A stretch of 64,000 bases of DNA, taken from the NCBI GenBank assembly GCA_034520945.1, contig JAXHNB010000005.1:480001-544000 (forward strand), written 5' to 3'. Below the pieces are notes generated by a model. The model did not search any database. It saw nothing but the letters and a program-made list of their open reading frames with translations, and was not told where the DNA came from. This DNA is from Trueperaceae bacterium (GTDB lineage Bacteria; Deinococcota; Deinococci; Deinococcales; Trueperaceae). Position numbers and translations under genes: made by a program. This document shows, one piece after another, positions 54,674 through 60,720 of the stretch; positions within the stretch are counted from its first letter, which is position 1, and every line of letters starts with the position of its first letter.

Positions 54674-55660
54674 ATGTACGAAGACGCCCGCGCCGAGATC
54701 GAGGCCGCCGCCGACCTGGACGTTCTGCAGGAGGTCCGCGTCCGTTGGCTGGGCAAGAAGGGCCGCGTCACCGCCGAGCTCGCCAAGCTGGGCTCGCTTC
54801 CGCCCGAGGAGCGGCGCGAGGCGGGGCGGCGCGTGAACGAAGCCAAGAAGCGCATACAGGAGGCGCTGGACGCCCGCAAGGCCGAGCTGGAGCGCGCGGA
54901 GGTGGCGCGCCGCCTGGCCGCCGAGCGGGTCGACGTGACCCTGCCCGGCACGCGGGGGCCGGACGGCGGCCTGCACCTGCTGACGCGCGTCACCAACCGG
55001 CTGCTGGACGTGTTCCACGGCCTCGGCTACGAGGTGGTGACCGGGCCGGAACTGGAGAGTGACGCCTACAACTTCGAAGCGCTGAACTTCCCGCCCGAGC
55101 ATCCCGCCCGCGACGAGCAGGACACCTTCTGGAGCGAGGACGGCCGGCTGCTGCGCACGCACACCAGCCCCATGCAGGTGCGCTACATGGAGACGCACGC
55201 GCCGCCGTTCAAGGTGGTGGTGCCCGGCAAGGTGTTCCGCAACGAGGCGGTCGACGCCACCCACGAGGCGCAGTTCCATCAACTCGAGGCGCTGGTGGTG
55301 GGCGAGCGCATCACCATGGCCGACCTGCGCGGCGCGATTCAGGCGATGGCCGACGCCTTCTTCGGTGAGGGGACCCGCACCCGGCTGCAGCCCAGCTACT
55401 TCCCGTTCGTCGAGCCCGGCGCGGAGTTCGCGGTGCACTGGACGCACCCCCGTACCGGCCGGCCGGAATGGCTGGAGCTCGGCGGTTGCGGCATGGTGCA
55501 CCCGAACGTGTTCCGTGCCGTGGGGTATCAGGGCGTGACCGGGTTCGCGTTCGGGTTCGGGATCGAACGCCTGGCGATGGTGCCCTACGGCGTGCCGGAC
55601 ATCCGCTGGTTCTACCAGAGCGACCTGCGGGTGCTGCGCCAGTTCCGGGGGGCGCTGTGA
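54674..55660 (+). CDS. pheS: Phenylalanine-tRNA ligase alpha subunit
   Basis: HPARDEQDTF, LLRTHTSP, FHQLE, YFPFVEP and GFAFGFGIERL motifs. Confidence 0.98.
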   Translation: MYEDARAEIEAAADLDVLQEVRVRWLGKKGRVTAELAKLGSLPPEERREAGRRVNEAKKRIQEALDARKAELERAEVARRLAAERVDVTLPGTRGPDGGLHLLTRVTNRLLDVFHGLGYEVVTGPELESDAYNFEALNFPPEHPARDEQDTFWSEDGRLLRTHTSPMQVRYMETHAPPFKVVVPGKVFRNEAVDATHEAQFHQLEALVVGERITMADLRGAIQAMADAFFGEGTRTRLQPSYFPFVEPGAEFAVHWTHPRTGRPEWLELGGCGMVHPNVFRAVGYQGVTGFAFGFGIERLAMVPYGVPDIRWFYQSDLRVLRQFRGAL

Positions 55661-58008
55661 GGATCCCGCACGGCTGGCTGGCGGAGCTGGTGCCGGGGTT
55701 GCCCGACGCCGACGCCTTGAGCGAGCTCCTGCCCGGGCTGGGCCTGGGGGTCGAGGCGGTGCACGAACGACCGGCGGCGCCGGCGGGCGTGGTGGTGGCG
55801 GAGGTGCGCGAGGTTTTGAAGATCGAGGGGTCCGACCACCTGCTGCGCGTACGCGCGTTCGACGGGCGCGATACGCACCAGGTGGTGTGCGGCGCGCCGA
55901 ACTGCCGGCCCGGCGTCCGCAGCGCGCTGGTGCCGCCCGGCACCGAGCTGCCGGCCGCCGGCCTGCGCGTGGAGCGCCGCACCCTGGCCGGCGTGGAGAG
56001 CGCCGGCATGCTGGCGTCGCCGCGGGAGCTGGGCCTGTTCGACCACGCCGCCGGCATCCTCACGCTGCCGCCGGACACGCCGCTCGGCCTGGACCTGCAG
56101 GAGGTCTGGCCGGCCGAGACGGTGCTGGAGTTGGAACTCACCCCCAACCGGGCGGACGCGTTCAGCCTGCTGGGCGTGGCGCGCGACCTGTGCGCCAAGC
56201 TGGGCGTGAGCCTGCGCCACCCCGCCGCCGGCGCCACGCCCGCGGACGGGGACGACGACGCCTTCGAGGTGCAGGTCGCGGACCCCGAGGGCTGTCCGCA
56301 CCTGGTGACCCGACGCATCACCGGCGTGCGGGTGGGGCCCAGTCCCGTGTGGCTGCAACGCCGCCTGGCCGCGCTGGGGCTCCGGCCCCGCAACAACGTC
56401 GTCGACGTCACCAACTACGTCACGTTCGAGCTGGGCCAACCGACGCACGCCTACGACCGCCGCGCCCTGCCGAAGGGCGTGCTGCAGGTCCGCCGCGCCG
56501 AGGCCGGCGAAGAGGTCCAGTTGCTGGATGAACGGACCTACGCGCTGGACCCGCGCGACCTGGTCATCGCCACGCCGAACGAGCACGGCGCGTCCAGCCC
56601 CGTCGGCCTGGCCGGCGTGATGGGCGGCCTGCACGACAGCGTGCGGGCCGACAGCGACGAGGTGGTGCTGGAGGCGGCGCACTTCGACCCGGTGTCGATC
56701 CGCAAGACCGCCAAGCGGCACGGCCTGCACAGCGACGCGCACTACCGCTTCGAACGCGGTGTCGACCCGGCCCTGCCCCCCGTCGCGGCGGCCCGCGCCG
56801 CCGCGCTGATCGCCGAGACCTCCGGCGGCACGGTGGTGCCCGCCCGCAGCCGGACCGGCGGCGCGCCCGCGCCGGCCGAGATCGACTTCCGCCCCTCGCG
56901 CGTGTCGTTCCTGATGGCGTTCGACGTCGAGGCGCCGTTGCAACGCCGCTACCTGGAGGCGCTCGGTTGCGAGGTGCACGAAGACGAAGCGGACGCCTGG
57001 CGGGTGCGGCCGCCCAGCTGGCGCTTCGACCTGAGCATCGAGGAGGACCTGGTCGAGGAGGTGGGGCGGCTGCACGGCTACGAGCACGTCGGGGCGACCC
57101 GGCCGGACCTGTCGTTCACGCCGCCGCACACCGACCCGACCCACCGGGCGTTGCGCGACGCGCTGGCGGCGGCCGGGCTGCAGGAGACGATCGCGTACGT
57201 GTTCAGCGGCGACGAGGAGCTGGCGCGCGCCCACGCCCCCGAGGCGCGGGTCCGGCTGTCCAACCCGCAGGGGGTCGAGCGCGCGCGGCTCCGCACCGCC
57301 CTGCACCCCGGCCTGCTGGCCGCCGCCGCCGCCAACCGCGGCGCGGACGGCCTGGCGCTGTTCGAGATCGGGCGGGTGTTCCTGGAGCCCGAGGAGGAAC
57401 GGCTCGCCGTCCTGCTGTCCGGCGCGTGGGAGCGCGGCGTGTGGCGCGAGGGCACGCGCGTGGACGTGTGGCGCCTGCGCGGCGTGCTGGAGGGGCTGGC
57501 GACGCGTTGGCGCGCCGCCCTGGAGGTGCGGCCCGCCAGGCCGGAGGAGGCGCCGATGCTGCACCCCGGCGTGGCGGGTGTGGTGTCGTGGGAGGGGCGC
57601 GAGGTCGGCATCATGGGCCGGCTCCACCCCGAAGTGGCCGCCGCGTACGAGCTGGCGGACGTCTACCTGGCGGAGCTGACCCTCCCGCTGGCGCCCGGCC
57701 CGCTGGCGATCGAGGACGTGCCCCGCCAGCCGTACGCCGAACGCGACCTGGCGATCGTGGCGCCGGCGGAGGTGCCGTACGCGCGCCTGGCCGCCCTGGT
57801 GCGGGAGCCCGCCGGCCCGCGCCTGGTGCACGCCGAACCGTTCGACGTCTACCAGGGCCCCCCGCTGGGCAGCCACGAGCGAAGCGTCGCCATCCGGCTG
57901 CGCTGGCGGCACCCCGAGCGGGCGCTGCGGGACGAAGAGGTCGACGCCTGGCTGGCGGCGGTCGCAGACGCGGTGCGGGCGGCGGGCTTCGGCATTCGCG
58001 GCTCGTAG
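55657..58008 (+). CDS. pheT: Phenylalanine-tRNA ligase beta subunit
   Basis: VVCGAPN, TPNRAD, NNVVDVTNY, RFERGVD, DLVEEVGRLHGY and FDVYQG motifs. Confidence 0.97.
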   Translation: MRIPHGWLAELVPGLPDADALSELLPGLGLGVEAVHERPAAPAGVVVAEVREVLKIEGSDHLLRVRAFDGRDTHQVVCGAPNCRPGVRSALVPPGTELPAAGLRVERRTLAGVESAGMLASPRELGLFDHAAGILTLPPDTPLGLDLQEVWPAETVLELELTPNRADAFSLLGVARDLCAKLGVSLRHPAAGATPADGDDDAFEVQVADPEGCPHLVTRRITGVRVGPSPVWLQRRLAALGLRPRNNVVDVTNYVTFELGQPTHAYDRRALPKGVLQVRRAEAGEEVQLLDERTYALDPRDLVIATPNEHGASSPVGLAGVMGGLHDSVRADSDEVVLEAAHFDPVSIRKTAKRHGLHSDAHYRFERGVDPALPPVAAARAAALIAETSGGTVVPARSRTGGAPAPAEIDFRPSRVSFLMAFDVEAPLQRRYLEALGCEVHEDEADAWRVRPPSWRFDLSIEEDLVEEVGRLHGYEHVGATRPDLSFTPPHTDPTHRALRDALAAAGLQETIAYVFSGDEELARAHAPEARVRLSNPQGVERARLRTALHPGLLAAAAANRGADGLALFEIGRVFLEPEEERLAVLLSGAWERGVWREGTRVDVWRLRGVLEGLATRWRAALEVRPARPEEAPMLHPGVAGVVSWEGREVGIMGRLHPEVAAAYELADVYLAELTLPLAPGPLAIEDVPRQPYAERDLAIVAPAEVPYARLAALVREPAGPRLVHAEPFDVYQGPPLGSHERSVAIRLRWRHPERALRDEEVDAWLAAVADAVRAAGFGIRGS

Positions 58009-58026: not shown

Positions 58027-58569
58027 GTGAGCTGGATCGACGGCGTGTTCGCCCTGCTTCTGGCCGGAATGACGGCCTTCGGCGCCCACCGGCGCCTCAC
58101 CGGCCTGTGGGTCGGCGTGGGCGGGGTGCTGCTGCTGAGGCCGGTGCTGGGCCTGGCGGCGGCGTCGCCGTGGGTGGGCCTGGCGGCCGCCCTCGGCGGT
58201 GGCGTGCTGCTGGGCCTGGTGGGCCGCCACCTGTTCGTGGAGGCGCGCACCGGCCGGGTGTGGCAGCGCGTGCTGGGCGGTCTCGGCGGCGCCTCGCTGG
58301 GGGCGGCGCTGGTGCTGGCCATCGCGGTGTCGCTCCCGATCCAACGCAGCCCGTTCGACCCGAACCAGCTCTACTACCCGCCCCGTGACCTTCCCCCCCT
58401 GGTGCAGGGCGCCGTGTTGCGTTCCTGGACGATGGACGTGGGTCGCGACGTGCTGCTGTTCCCGTTGCTCGACGCGCAGAACGCCGTGCCCGAGGAACGC
58501 CGGGCGCTGCTGCGGGGGCTGCACCGCTTGCTGGTGGTGGGCAGGCCGTGGCGGCAGGAGGGAGGCTGA
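58027..58569 (+). CDS. Membrane protein, possibly CvpA-like
   Basis: MSWID N-terminus, several hydrophobic helices, RVLGGLGG motif; TATGCT 6 nt before GTG. Confidence 0.6.
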   Translation: MSWIDGVFALLLAGMTAFGAHRRLTGLWVGVGGVLLLRPVLGLAAASPWVGLAAALGGGVLLGLVGRHLFVEARTGRVWQRVLGGLGGASLGAALVLAIAVSLPIQRSPFDPNQLYYPPRDLPPLVQGAVLRSWTMDVGRDVLLFPLLDAQNAVPEERRALLRGLHRLLVVGRPWRQEGG

Positions 58570-58599
58570 GGGTCCCCCAAGCTAGGTAGACACGCGAGG

Positions 58600-58860
58600 A
58601 AGCGCAAGCCCGGTCCGCACGCGGACCGGTGACGAGGTGGAGGGCCCCCTGCGGTCCCGCGCCGCGGCCACCAGGCCGGTCGGCGACCCGGGGGGACAGG
58701 CGCACACCGAGAGGTGCGGCGCCGAAAACGCGAGAACGTCTGCGGGCCCCTCCCGAGATGGATCCCTCGCTCGCGTACACGCACGGATCCCTCGCGGCGA
58801 TGCACATCGCCGCCCCCGGCACCCGAGCGGTGCCGCCGGCCCGACCCGCCGGCCCAGCTC
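58600..58860 (+). ncRNA. glmS ribozyme-like RNA (variant with an internal insertion; 3' boundary uncertain)
   Basis: AGCGC cleavage motif, P1 hairpin, TGACGAGG core, GGAGGG/CCCTCC P2 and CGAGA..TGCGG, all directly upstream of glmS. Confidence 0.7.
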
Positions 58861-58902
58861 ACCCCGAACCGAAAACGCTGCTGAACACGAAACGGAGTCC
58901 AC

Positions 58903-60720
58903 ATGTGTGGAATCGTCGGTTACGTCGGCGCGCGTGACGCGTCGCCCATCGTCCTGGACGGGCTGTCCCGCCTGGAGTATCGCGGCTACGACTCCGCAGG
59001 CATCGTCAGCTTGGACGCGGACGGCGCCATGGCGCACGTCAAGCGGGCCGGCAAGCTACGGGTCCTGGCGGACGCCATGCAGCACGCGCCGCTGCCCGGA
59101 CACCTGGCCCTCGGCCACACCCGCTGGGCCACCCACGGCCGGCCCAGCGACGTCAACGCCCATCCTCACCTCAGCGAGGACGGCCGCCTGGCGATCATCC
59201 ACAACGGCATCATCGAGAACTACGCCCCGCTGCGCGCGCGGCTGCAGGACGCCGGCCACGCCTTCGCCAGCGAGACCGACAGCGAGGTGCTGGTCCACCT
59301 GATCGAGCACCACTACCGTGGCGACCTGGCCGCCGCCGTGCGGGCGGCGCTGCGGGAGGTCGAGGGCGCGTTCGCGCTGGTGTGCGCCCACGCCGGTCAC
59401 GACGAGATCGTGGCGGCGCGCGCCACCAGCCCGCTGGTGGTCGGCCTGGGCGACGGCGAGACCTTCCTGGCCAGCGACGTGCCGGCCCTGCTGCCCTACA
59501 CCCGCCGGGTGGTGTACCTCGCCGACGGCGACGTCGCCATCGTCCGCGCCTCGGGCCTGGAACTGCAGGACGTGGACGGCGCCCCCCGGCCGGTGCGCGA
59601 GGACCGCGTCGACTGGGACGCCGAGGCGGCCGAGAAGGGCGGCTACCCGCACTTCATGCTCAAGGAGATCTTCGAGCAGCCCACCGTGCTGCAGAACACC
59701 TTCGGCGGCCGCTTCGATCCCAGCGGCAGCGACGTGAACCTGGACCTGAGCTTGGATCCCGCCGCCGTGGACCGGGTGGTGATCACCGCGTGCGGCACCG
59801 CGTCGTACGCCGGCCAGGTCGGCCGCGCGTTGATCGAGCGCTGGGCGCGCCTGCCGGTCCAGGTGGAGGTCGCCAGCGAATTTCGCTACCAGCGGCCCGT
59901 GCTGGACGCGCGCACCCTGGTGGTGGCGGTCAGCCAGTCGGGCGAGACCATCGACACCCTCGGCGCGGTGCGACGCGCGCGCGAGGCGGGCGCGCGGACG
60001 CTGGCCGTCCTGAACGTGAAGGGCTCGTCCCTGGCGCGGGAGGTGGACGACGTGCTGTACGTGCACGCCGGGCCGGAGATCGGCGTGGCCAGCACCAAGG
60101 CGTACCTGGCGATGATCGCGGCGTTCGCGCTGCTGGCGCTGCGCCTGGGGCGGGCGCGCGGCACGCTCGGGGAGGACGAGGCCCGCGCGCTGATCGAGGA
60201 GCTGCGGCGCATGCCGGGCCTGGCGCAGGAGACCCTCGAGCGGAGGGACGCGGTCGACGCCGTCGCGGCCGGCCTCACCGGCGCGCGGGACGCCCTGTTC
60301 CTGGGGCGCGGCGTGCACGTCGCCACCGCCTTCGAGGGCGCCCTGAAGCTGAAGGAGATCAGCTACCTGCACGCCGAGGCGTACCCGACCGGCGAGATGA
60401 AGCACGGCCCCATCGCCCTGATCGACGAGCACATGCCGGTGATCGTGATCGCCACCGCCGGCGACACCTACGCCAAGACGGTGTCCAACATGCAGGAGGT
60501 GCGCGCGCGGGACGGGCGGCTGATCGCCATCGCCAGCGACGGCGACGATGACATCGCCCAGCAGGCCGACCAGGTGTTGTACGTGCCGCGCACCTCGGAG
60601 CTGCTCTCTGCGCTCCTGGTGGCGATCCCGCTGCAGCTGTTGGCGTACCAGGTGGCGGTGCGGTTGGGCCGCGACGTGGACCAGCCCCGCAACCTGGCGA
60701 AGAGCGTCACCGTGGAGTGA
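58903..60720 (+). CDS. glmS: Glutamine-fructose-6-phosphate transaminase
   Basis: MCGIVG, LEYRGYDSAG, GHTRWATHG, SQSGET and PRNLAKSVTVE motifs. Confidence 0.99.
   Translation: MCGIVGYVGARDASPIVLDGLSRLEYRGYDSAGIVSLDADGAMAHVKRAGKLRVLADAMQHAPLPGHLALGHTRWATHGRPSDVNAHPHLSEDGRLAIIHNGIIENYAPLRARLQDAGHAFASETDSEVLVHLIEHHYRGDLAAAVRAALREVEGAFALVCAHAGHDEIVAARATSPLVVGLGDGETFLASDVPALLPYTRRVVYLADGDVAIVRASGLELQDVDGAPRPVREDRVDWDAEAAEKGGYPHFMLKEIFEQPTVLQNTFGGRFDPSGSDVNLDLSLDPAAVDRVVITACGTASYAGQVGRALIERWARLPVQVEVASEFRYQRPVLDARTLVVAVSQSGETIDTLGAVRRAREAGARTLAVLNVKGSSLAREVDDVLYVHAGPEIGVASTKAYLAMIAAFALLALRLGRARGTLGEDEARALIEELRRMPGLAQETLERRDAVDAVAAGLTGARDALFLGRGVHVATAFEGALKLKEISYLHAEAYPTGEMKHGPIALIDEHMPVIVIATAGDTYAKTVSNMQEVRARDGRLIAIASDGDDDIAQQADQVLYVPRTSELLSALLVAIPLQLLAYQVAVRLGRDVDQPRNLAKSVTVE

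Follow-up and report, generated by a model that had tools for sequence, protein, structure and literature searches.

The segment at positions 58593-58790 on the forward strand of the window, by which we mean the whole 64-kb stretch of DNA that was analyzed, is best explained as an RNA of the glmS ribozyme lineage whose structure has been rearranged and which resides in the 5' UTR of glmS. Judging from comparative sequence evidence, we consider it probable (about 0.8) that this is the identity of the element and that it exerts feedback on glmS by GlcN6P-dependent self-cleavage. To our knowledge, the glmS ribozyme stands alone among natural ribozymes in using a metabolite as its cofactor, and it is commonly depicted as having a uniform architecture. 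The form described here does without the P4/P4.1 stability domain and appears to recruit its own 5' leader into the fold, and, as a family-wide form (87 of 128 genomes), it tolerates 58-208 nt inside the double-pseudoknot core, between the 5' strand of P2 and GUCUGCGG. Such a variant would show that parts of the ribozyme scaffold are replaceable, and would provide natural test cases for how the periphery stabilizes the core.

The Element Precedes an Intact glmS Gene

The element starts 302 nt 5' of an intact gene on the same strand (58903-60720), whose 605-aa product begins with MCGIVGYVG. Because its reading frame carries both the SIS domain (Pfam, 1.1e-54) and the class-II glutamine amidotransferase domain (GATase_6, 1.2e-22), the product can be assigned as GlmS, and this is the gene that the element would regulate. 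Upstream of glmS lie pheT (55468-58008) and an open reading frame of 180 aa (58027-58569), which has no Pfam match and ends 24 nt before the first strand of the leader helix P0 described below; the C-terminal region of this frame is apparently kept upstream of glmS in some other genera. A scan of 58300-58960 for promoters and terminators returned no site of either kind.

A sequence-only reading of this DNA had proposed a glmS ribozyme variant in which a large structured insertion separates the 5' strand of P2 from the 3' strand of P2.1, and our comparison of 42 sequences agrees with this proposal. When the sequence was reread, all strings on which the proposal was based were found in place on the forward strand: A58601^G58602 followed by GCGCA (58601-58602), the P1 strands CCGGTCCG and CGGACCGG (58610-58617 and 58622-58629), TGACGAGG (58630-58637), CGAGAACGTCTGCGGG (58731-58746), the strings GTCCC and GGGAC (58654-58658 and 58693-58697) and a GGCGC..CACC-GAGA-GGTG..GCGCC hairpin (58699-58723). 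Chance is excluded as the origin of this set of motifs. A composite of core motifs, AGCGCAAG-N10-40-GACGAGGNGGAGGG, matches once in the 64-kb window and in none of 100 dinucleotide shuffles, and the 16-mer GTCTGCGGGCCCCTCC has a single match in the 3.47-Mb source genome (97.4% complete, 5.1% contamination), with zero matches to a reversed control.

Further structure is visible between the element and the start codon. A GCCGG/CCGGC hairpin at 58835-58853 carries CCGACCC in its loop; in other species of the genus, UCCGG-ACCGACCCU-CCGGA follows shortly after P3.1, where a CGGG...CCCG hairpin is found in other genera. The hairpin may represent a further conserved element between ribozyme and start codon. 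Two extra GC-rich hairpins at 58795-58841 (GCGGCGAUG-CACA-UCGCCGC and CGGCACC-CGAG-CGGUGCCG) are located between P3.1 and this downstream hairpin and are missing in the other members of the genus that were read.

All Strands of the Catalytic Core Are Present in Canonical Order

The strands of the catalytic core are all present and follow each other in the canonical order: A^GCGC(A), P1, GACGAGG, P2, the 3' strand of P2.1 and the 3' strand of P2.2. Their conservation across the family is shown by sequence alignment. For this comparison we used 42 distinct parsable sequences, the named ones being from Trueperaceae or Deinococcales, which were aligned with MAFFT (alignment A2), and the structure was written from the window row.

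The predicted scissile bond is assigned by homology to A58601^G58602. A^GCGC is invariant in 42/42 sequences, and alignment of the relatives to RF00234 places it on A^GCGCC of the consensus. The 5' strand of P2.2 (58603-58608) comprises CGCA, the bulged A58607 and G58608 and pairs with 58740-58744, all five pairs being invariant (42/42). The suggestion, made from the window alone, that GCGCA/UGCG is a compensated P2.2 is supported; the combination is not a peculiarity of the locus, being standard throughout the four families of the order that carry the ribozyme. In the crystallography-derived description of PMC7125110, which our pair scheme follows, P2.1 of the canonical core is given as nucleotides 28-30 with 43-45 and P2.2 as running from the C2-G56 to the 5-53 pair with A6 bulged, and the 5-53 pair is described there as poorly conserved. 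The A5-U53 pair of the window can thus be regarded as an ordinary compensated variant, and it is also common to f2 and f5, two Deinococcus-like families of the order.

P1 is a hairpin at 58610-58629 (CCGGUCCG-CACG-CGGACCGG) that is recovered by covariation as well as by the MFE fold; its five basal pairs are 97.6% paired in the 42 sequences, and three of the five change on both sides. It is followed by the core strand GACGAGG (58631-58637), in which C58633 and G58634 form P2.1 and in which, in alignment A2, the first G is nearly invariant and A, C, G, A, G and G are invariant. Next comes P2, formed by GGAGGG (58639-58644) and CCCTCC (58748-58753), with all six pairs invariant and 100% paired. 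The invariance of P2 and P2.2 is what is expected for core helices. On the 3' side, a GAAAAC linker (58724-58729) leads into GCG (58730-58732), the 3' strand of P2.1, and GUCUGCGGGCCCCUCC (58738-58753) contains the 3' strand of P2.2 (58740-58744), a 3-nt joiner and the 3' strand of P2.

Within this core, two changes are fixed. P2.1 keeps its pairs C58633-G58732 and G58634-C58731 in 42/42 and 42/42 sequences, respectively, and the third position (A58635/G58730) is A/G and unpaired in 42/42, whereas the canonical ribozyme forms three pairs between CGA and UCG. The presence of GCG instead of UCG, already remarked upon for the window, is thereby confirmed and is shared with f2, a family that is detectable by the Rfam model. 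In addition, the joiner after P2.2 reads GGC here as opposed to GaUG in the Rfam consensus. The very same substitutions could be taken to indicate an active ribozyme with a changed cofactor dependence, responding to a different amino sugar or processing the leader constitutively. We regard such a change as quite unlikely, because the G-for-U exchange in P2.1 is also found in f2 relatives that are nearly accepted by RF00234, and because the exclusive association with glmS is kept, with this genome containing one copy and most of the family genomes that carry the 16-mer matching it a single time. An exclusive association with glmS fits feedback by GlcN6P.

Two Hairpins Are Inserted into the P2 Loop

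Directly after the 5' strand of P2, all 42 sequences contain a first inserted hairpin, P2a (58645-58695 in the window). Its closing stem, as kept in the comparison, pairs CCCCC (58645-58649) with GGGGG (58691-58695); the five basal pairs are 91.9% paired, 5/5 change on both sides, and the length of the hairpin varies from 17 to 73 nt. The second hairpin, P2b (58699-58723), is capped in the window by the GNRA loop GAGA (58709-58712). Its four basal pairs are 87.3% paired, with 3/4 changing on both sides, and its length varies from 10 to 134 nt across the 42 sequences. Boundaries and lengths of both hairpins were taken from per-sequence MFE folds. According to these folds, the linker between the hairpins, ACA in the window (58696-58698), is AUA in most relatives (AUA 26, ACA 5, other 11; n = 42). 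The sequence (G/C)AAA(G/A)(C/U)GCGA is conserved 3' of P2b. From the 5' strand of P2 to GUCUGCGG the segment thus delimited measures 93 nt here, compared to the range of 58-208 nt across relatives. Besides P2a and P2b, 26/42 sequences and most other genera have a third hairpin, located between the strands of P2.1 and P2.2; it is found in none of the sequences from the window's genus. The GTCCC/GGGAC stem originally drawn inside the insert fares less well: both strings exist, but their pairing finds no support in the comparison, where the AC of GGGAC belongs to the ACA linker. Topologically, we infer that the insert expands the short joiner between the P2.1/P2 pseudoknot stems into a multi-helix junction.

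Could the 85-nt insert be an independent second aptamer or sensor, as the sequence-only reading had considered, or a mobile insertion? It is structured and lies inside the core, yet it consists of two plain hairpins of variable length, in which conservation is limited to basal pairs and linkers and the loop sequences are free. A search of 58500-58950 against Rfam at E<=10 yielded no family match for the insert, and a search of its own genome yielded only the self-match as significant, the next best having an E value of 0.011. Moreover, the insert occupies the same site in 42/42 sequences and in the sister family f4. We therefore hold a second aptamer or a mobile element to be highly improbable.

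It had also been suggested that the insert takes the place of the P3/P4 scaffold. P4 and P4.1 are indeed gone, but P3/P3.1 is still present, and f4 has both the insert and a long P3-P4-like 3' domain, which implies that the insert was not, in origin, a replacement. Since f4 combines the same hairpins with a more canonical core and this long 3' domain, the insertion predates the loss of P4. In T. tengcongensis, pairs of P1 serve as the docking site of a GNRA loop (nt 114-117; PMC3494683). The idea that the GNRA loop of P2b generally stands in for the P4.1 loop was considered and dropped: the loop is found in 8/9 sequences of the genus and in only 10/42 overall, so that a like-for-like replacement would at best be genus-specific.

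The 3' Periphery Comprises P3/P3.1 and Is Joined by a Leader Helix

P3 and P4 had escaped recognition in the window. A P3/P3.1 pseudoknot can now be placed at 58754-58790. P3 pairs CGAG (58754-58757) with CUCG (58766-58769), its loop holds the 5' strand of P3.1 (GGAUCC, 58760-58765), and the 3' strand of P3.1 (GGAUCC, 58785-58790) closes the pseudoknot. In the 42 sequences, P3 is 97.0% paired with 2/4 pairs changing on both sides and a closing pair that is UA in 28, CG in 13 and UG in 1, and P3.1 is 86.9% paired with 5/6 pairs changing on both sides, a result with which alignment A1 agrees. When P3/P3.1 was evaluated alone, in an independent alignment of the 3' part, 90.7% pairing was obtained versus 25-49% in controls. 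Of the full peripheral domain (P3, P3.1, P4 and P4.1), the covarying P3 and P3.1 are thus present, and P4/P4.1 is absent, because only 9 nt (58776-58784) are left between the 3' strand of P0 and P3.1. According to PMC10810187, the peripheral domain is stabilizing rather than catalytic. Two metagenome-assembled genomes of Trueperaceae deserve mention here. In one (locus L105), core and leader pairing are kept and a longer leader helix seems to replace P3/P3.1; in the other (L077), P3 is AGAG/CUCU, a double compensatory change.

The leader helix P0 went unnoticed in the sequence-only reading. Its 5' strand CGCGAG (58593-58598) is located 4-9 nt upstream of the cleavage site and pairs with CUCGCG (58770-58775), which is contiguous with the 3' strand of P3 without a gap column in A2; A58592 may add a seventh pair. 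A GAA linker (58599-58601) connects the leader strand to the scissile bond. P0 is 90.1% paired in the 42 sequences of A2, and 4/6 pairs change on both sides. One of the pairs occurs in four Watson-Crick types (GC 13, UA 10, AU 7, CG 2, other 10), and in the most divergent sequence, L009, CGAG/CUCG is exchanged for UUGGG/CCCAA. P0 sits where P4 begins in canonical ribozymes and continues the P3 stack. Further out, a second leader helix, GGAC/GUCC, is 69.3% paired in other genera and is not in register in the window's genus. Separately, GGATCCCTCGC forms a direct repeat at 58761-58771 and 58785-58795, through which CCUCGCG at 58790-58796 becomes a second possible partner of the leader strand (58593-58599). 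This alternative is used by the nested MFE fold and is confined to the window, not being conserved in the genus.

Given these features, might the element descend from a glmS ribozyme and no longer cleave, acting instead as a leader that binds GlcN6P or a protein and controls translation or transcription by its conformation? The fixed changes beside the ligand pocket (A/G in P2.1 in 42/42, GGC for GaUG) would be compatible with this scenario, as would P0, which ties the leader into the fold, the additional hairpins ahead of the start codon and the second possible partner of the leader strand. We nevertheless consider a non-cleaving leader unlikely. A^GCGC, GACGAGG (its first G being nearly invariant), P2.2 and P2 are conserved in 42/42 sequences, and an invariant scissile site and core are hard to explain without selection on the active site. 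Moreover, 58300-58960 contains no terminator-like site, and the partner at 58790-58796 lacks conservation in the genus.

A related idea retains cleavage and concerns the class to which the ribozyme belongs. The family, and f4 in a milder form, might use a distinct class of glmS ribozyme in which P0 is an integral helix stacked on P3 at the place where P4 would normally start and the 5' product is held in a helix beside the 5'-OH, such that its behavior could differ. We find this doubtful at present and offer it tentatively. If it were true, then P0 and the fixed pocket-adjacent changes could result in retention of the product with reversible cleavage and ligation, and activity may depend on folding of the leader, or the response to the cofactor may be altered.

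Pairing Is Conserved while Standard Models Miss the Element

Taking the structure as a whole, 90.1% of 2003 cells in A2 pair, compared to 34.5-46.4% in controls with partners displaced by 1-3 columns, 26/48 pairs change on both sides and 0/500 column shuffles reach the observed values; the sequences being related, the covariation counts overstate independence, and the structure was drawn from these same sequences. The MFE z-score of -1.57 is weak.

As had been anticipated from the window, covariance models miss the element. RF00234 gave no match on the 64-kb window at its gathering threshold (37 bits), a score that is not reached at the locus, and remained silent even at E<=10 on 58500-58950, on the locus as fetched (L011) and on the whole 3.47-Mb genome. 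When the model was run on 41 genomes of the order, it matched 12 of them at E<=1 and exceeded the cut-off in 4. By family, matches were obtained for 4/4 genomes of f5 (42.8-49.4 bits), 4/4 genomes of f2 (31.7-35.6 bits), 4/24 genomes of the element's own family, f1 (14.7-25.6 bits), and 0/4 genomes each of f3 and f4. The best score of the own family (25.6 bits) belongs to L009, which has the shortest insert; here, only the 5' part is sensibly aligned, and P2a is mis-assigned as P3. As the standard model is blind to the variant, no glmS ribozyme is annotated in genomes of this lineage. Both the variant and the related f4 form could be recovered with a revised covariance model.

Sequence profiles built from relatives behave according to the relatives chosen. 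An nhmmer profile of 25 sequences from other genera, with the window's genus excluded, found 58592-58778 as its sole match in the genome (E 2.5e-22, 79.8 bits), and no further match at E<=10 in the 3.47 Mb. A profile of the 8 Rfam-recognized relatives (f2 and f5) missed the element genome-wide, with one spurious match elsewhere (E 1.4), and when applied to the intergenic region alone it aligned only 58598-58642 (1.0 bit, E 0.019). Similarity to the canonical ribozyme is thus confined to short core motifs, and the argument for homology consequently rests on motif order, pairing, synteny and the existence of an intermediate in f4.

The Variant Is Widespread in Its Family

The 16-mer spanning P2.2 and P2 is found in 87/128 genomes of the family, 59/79 of the high-quality genomes and 28/36 genera, compared to 0 for the reversed control; this tally includes the unpublished genome G118 and is based on exact matching, such that the 41 family genomes without the 16-mer are not proof of absence. 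Across species-representative genomes, GTCTGCGGGCCCCTCC occurs in at least 119 stretches. Among the 80 loci listed, the full core was recognized in 18 by a regular expression and in L057 and L061 by eye. The core-bearing loci among those listed are mostly titled Trueperaceae, others being titled Deinococcaceae bacterium, Deinococcales bacterium or uncultured bacterium, and the remaining loci among those listed are apparent chance matches in GC-rich genomes or represent a Bacteroidales repeat. The latter accounts for L042, L047, L050, L053, L055, L079, L088, L091 and L093, all from Bacteroidales or Bacteroidia gut and rumen metagenome-assembled genomes, in which the 16-mer is part of a repeat-like, conserved element (..GTCTGCGGGCCCCTCCCTCTTA..GGCCGAGGGTGGCCA..) without relation to glmS. 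A Thermogutta metagenome-assembled genome (L081) shows a 26-nt identity, which was treated as chance, since the sequence around it looks coding and the core is missing upstream.

By DNA search, glmS loci were fetched from 29/41 genomes of the order; L033 (from G008) was rejected as a glmS locus on inspection. One metagenome-assembled genome of the window's genus (G004) has two glmS loci, L017 and L040, with ribozymes of the subtypes of its own genus and of another genus, which suggests that it is a mixed bin. In four family genomes, G020 (L020), G017, G023 and G024, one of which is a complete single contig, no ribozyme core is present within 450 nt upstream of glmS. Losses of the ribozyme in some family genomes are possible.

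How Might the Element Act?

In B. subtilis, a preformed core binds GlcN6P and cleaves, RNase J1 then degrades the fragment bearing the 5'-OH, and peripheral helices stabilize the core (PMC10810187). By homology with this system, we envision that binding of GlcN6P to the preformed core would trigger cleavage between A58601 and G58602, that the glmS mRNA would be left with a 5'-OH and would then be subject to decay by RNase J, and that the outcome would be negative feedback on GlmS synthesis. RNase J is encoded in this genome (531 bits versus a cut-off of 400). Owing to P0, the ribozyme would keep hold of its 5' cleavage fragment through base pairing. Judging from their position, P2a, P2b and P0 may serve as scaffolds that stabilize the double-pseudoknot core instead of P4/P4.1.

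Is the variant new? McCown et al. reportedly described glmS ribozymes in Deinococcus-Thermus in 2011 and 2012. Neither the variant nor a P0-like leader pairing is described in the glmS ribozyme literature that we searched, a body of work whose scope did not extend to the key 2011 survey. The novelty of the variant is thus probable but unproven.

Comparison with Related and Canonical glmS Ribozymes

Relatives within the order bridge part of the distance to the canonical ribozyme. In f2 and f5, a ribozyme is found at the same place upstream of glmS and shares A^GCGCAAG, (G/A)ACGAGGU, CUGCGG and the UGCG partner with the element of the window. In f2, GCGAG replaces AUCGAA, as it does in the window. 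Unlike the window element, both families keep the full set of P3, P4, P4.1 and P3.1; f2 is without hairpins in the P2 loop, and of the extra hairpins f5 has just the one between P2.1 and P2.2. A possible 3-bp GGG/CCC contact between the leader and nucleotides after P3, seen by eye, is invariant in these families.

The sister family f4, of which three sequences were inspected by eye, carries P2a and P2b at the same site, with the linkers AUAA and RAAAG, and its stems covary among the three sequences (CCCC/GGGG versus CUCG/CGAG). Its leader is base-paired to the strand immediately 3' of P3, as in GGCGGG/CCCGCC, and it has a P2 of 5 bp, a leader linker of 2 nt and a long P3-P4-like 3' domain. Unlike the window element, f4 keeps the canonical GAUCGAGG, CCGCGGAUGCCGCC and GGAUGCC. 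Going by these sequence features, f4 is an intermediate between the canonical ribozyme and the form found in the window.

Compared to the canonical glmS ribozyme (RF00234; Bacillus and Thermoanaerobacter type), the element differs in several respects. An 85-nt segment with two hairpins, A(U/C)A between them and GAAAR after them, takes the place of a P2-P2.1 joiner of 2-3 nt. The periphery consists of a 4-bp P3 and a 6-bp P3.1 pseudoknot, and the canonical P4/P4.1 is missing; the contact between the P4.1 GNRA loop and P1 that is listed in PMC3494683 is therefore not made. The element further has the leader helix P0, a P2 of 6 bp, A-U in place of the C5-G53 pair, A/G in place of an A-U pair in P2.1, and GGC for GaUG. 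Common to both are the location in the 5' UTR of glmS, the A^GCGC cleavage site, the bulged A after P2.2, P1 followed by GACGAGG, the double pseudoknot of P2, P2.1 and P2.2, and a P3 loop that pairs with downstream sequence to form P3.1. The mechanism, too, is expected to be that of the canonical ribozyme, with cleavage triggered by GlcN6P and decay by RNase J, as laid out in PMC10810187 and PMC7125110.
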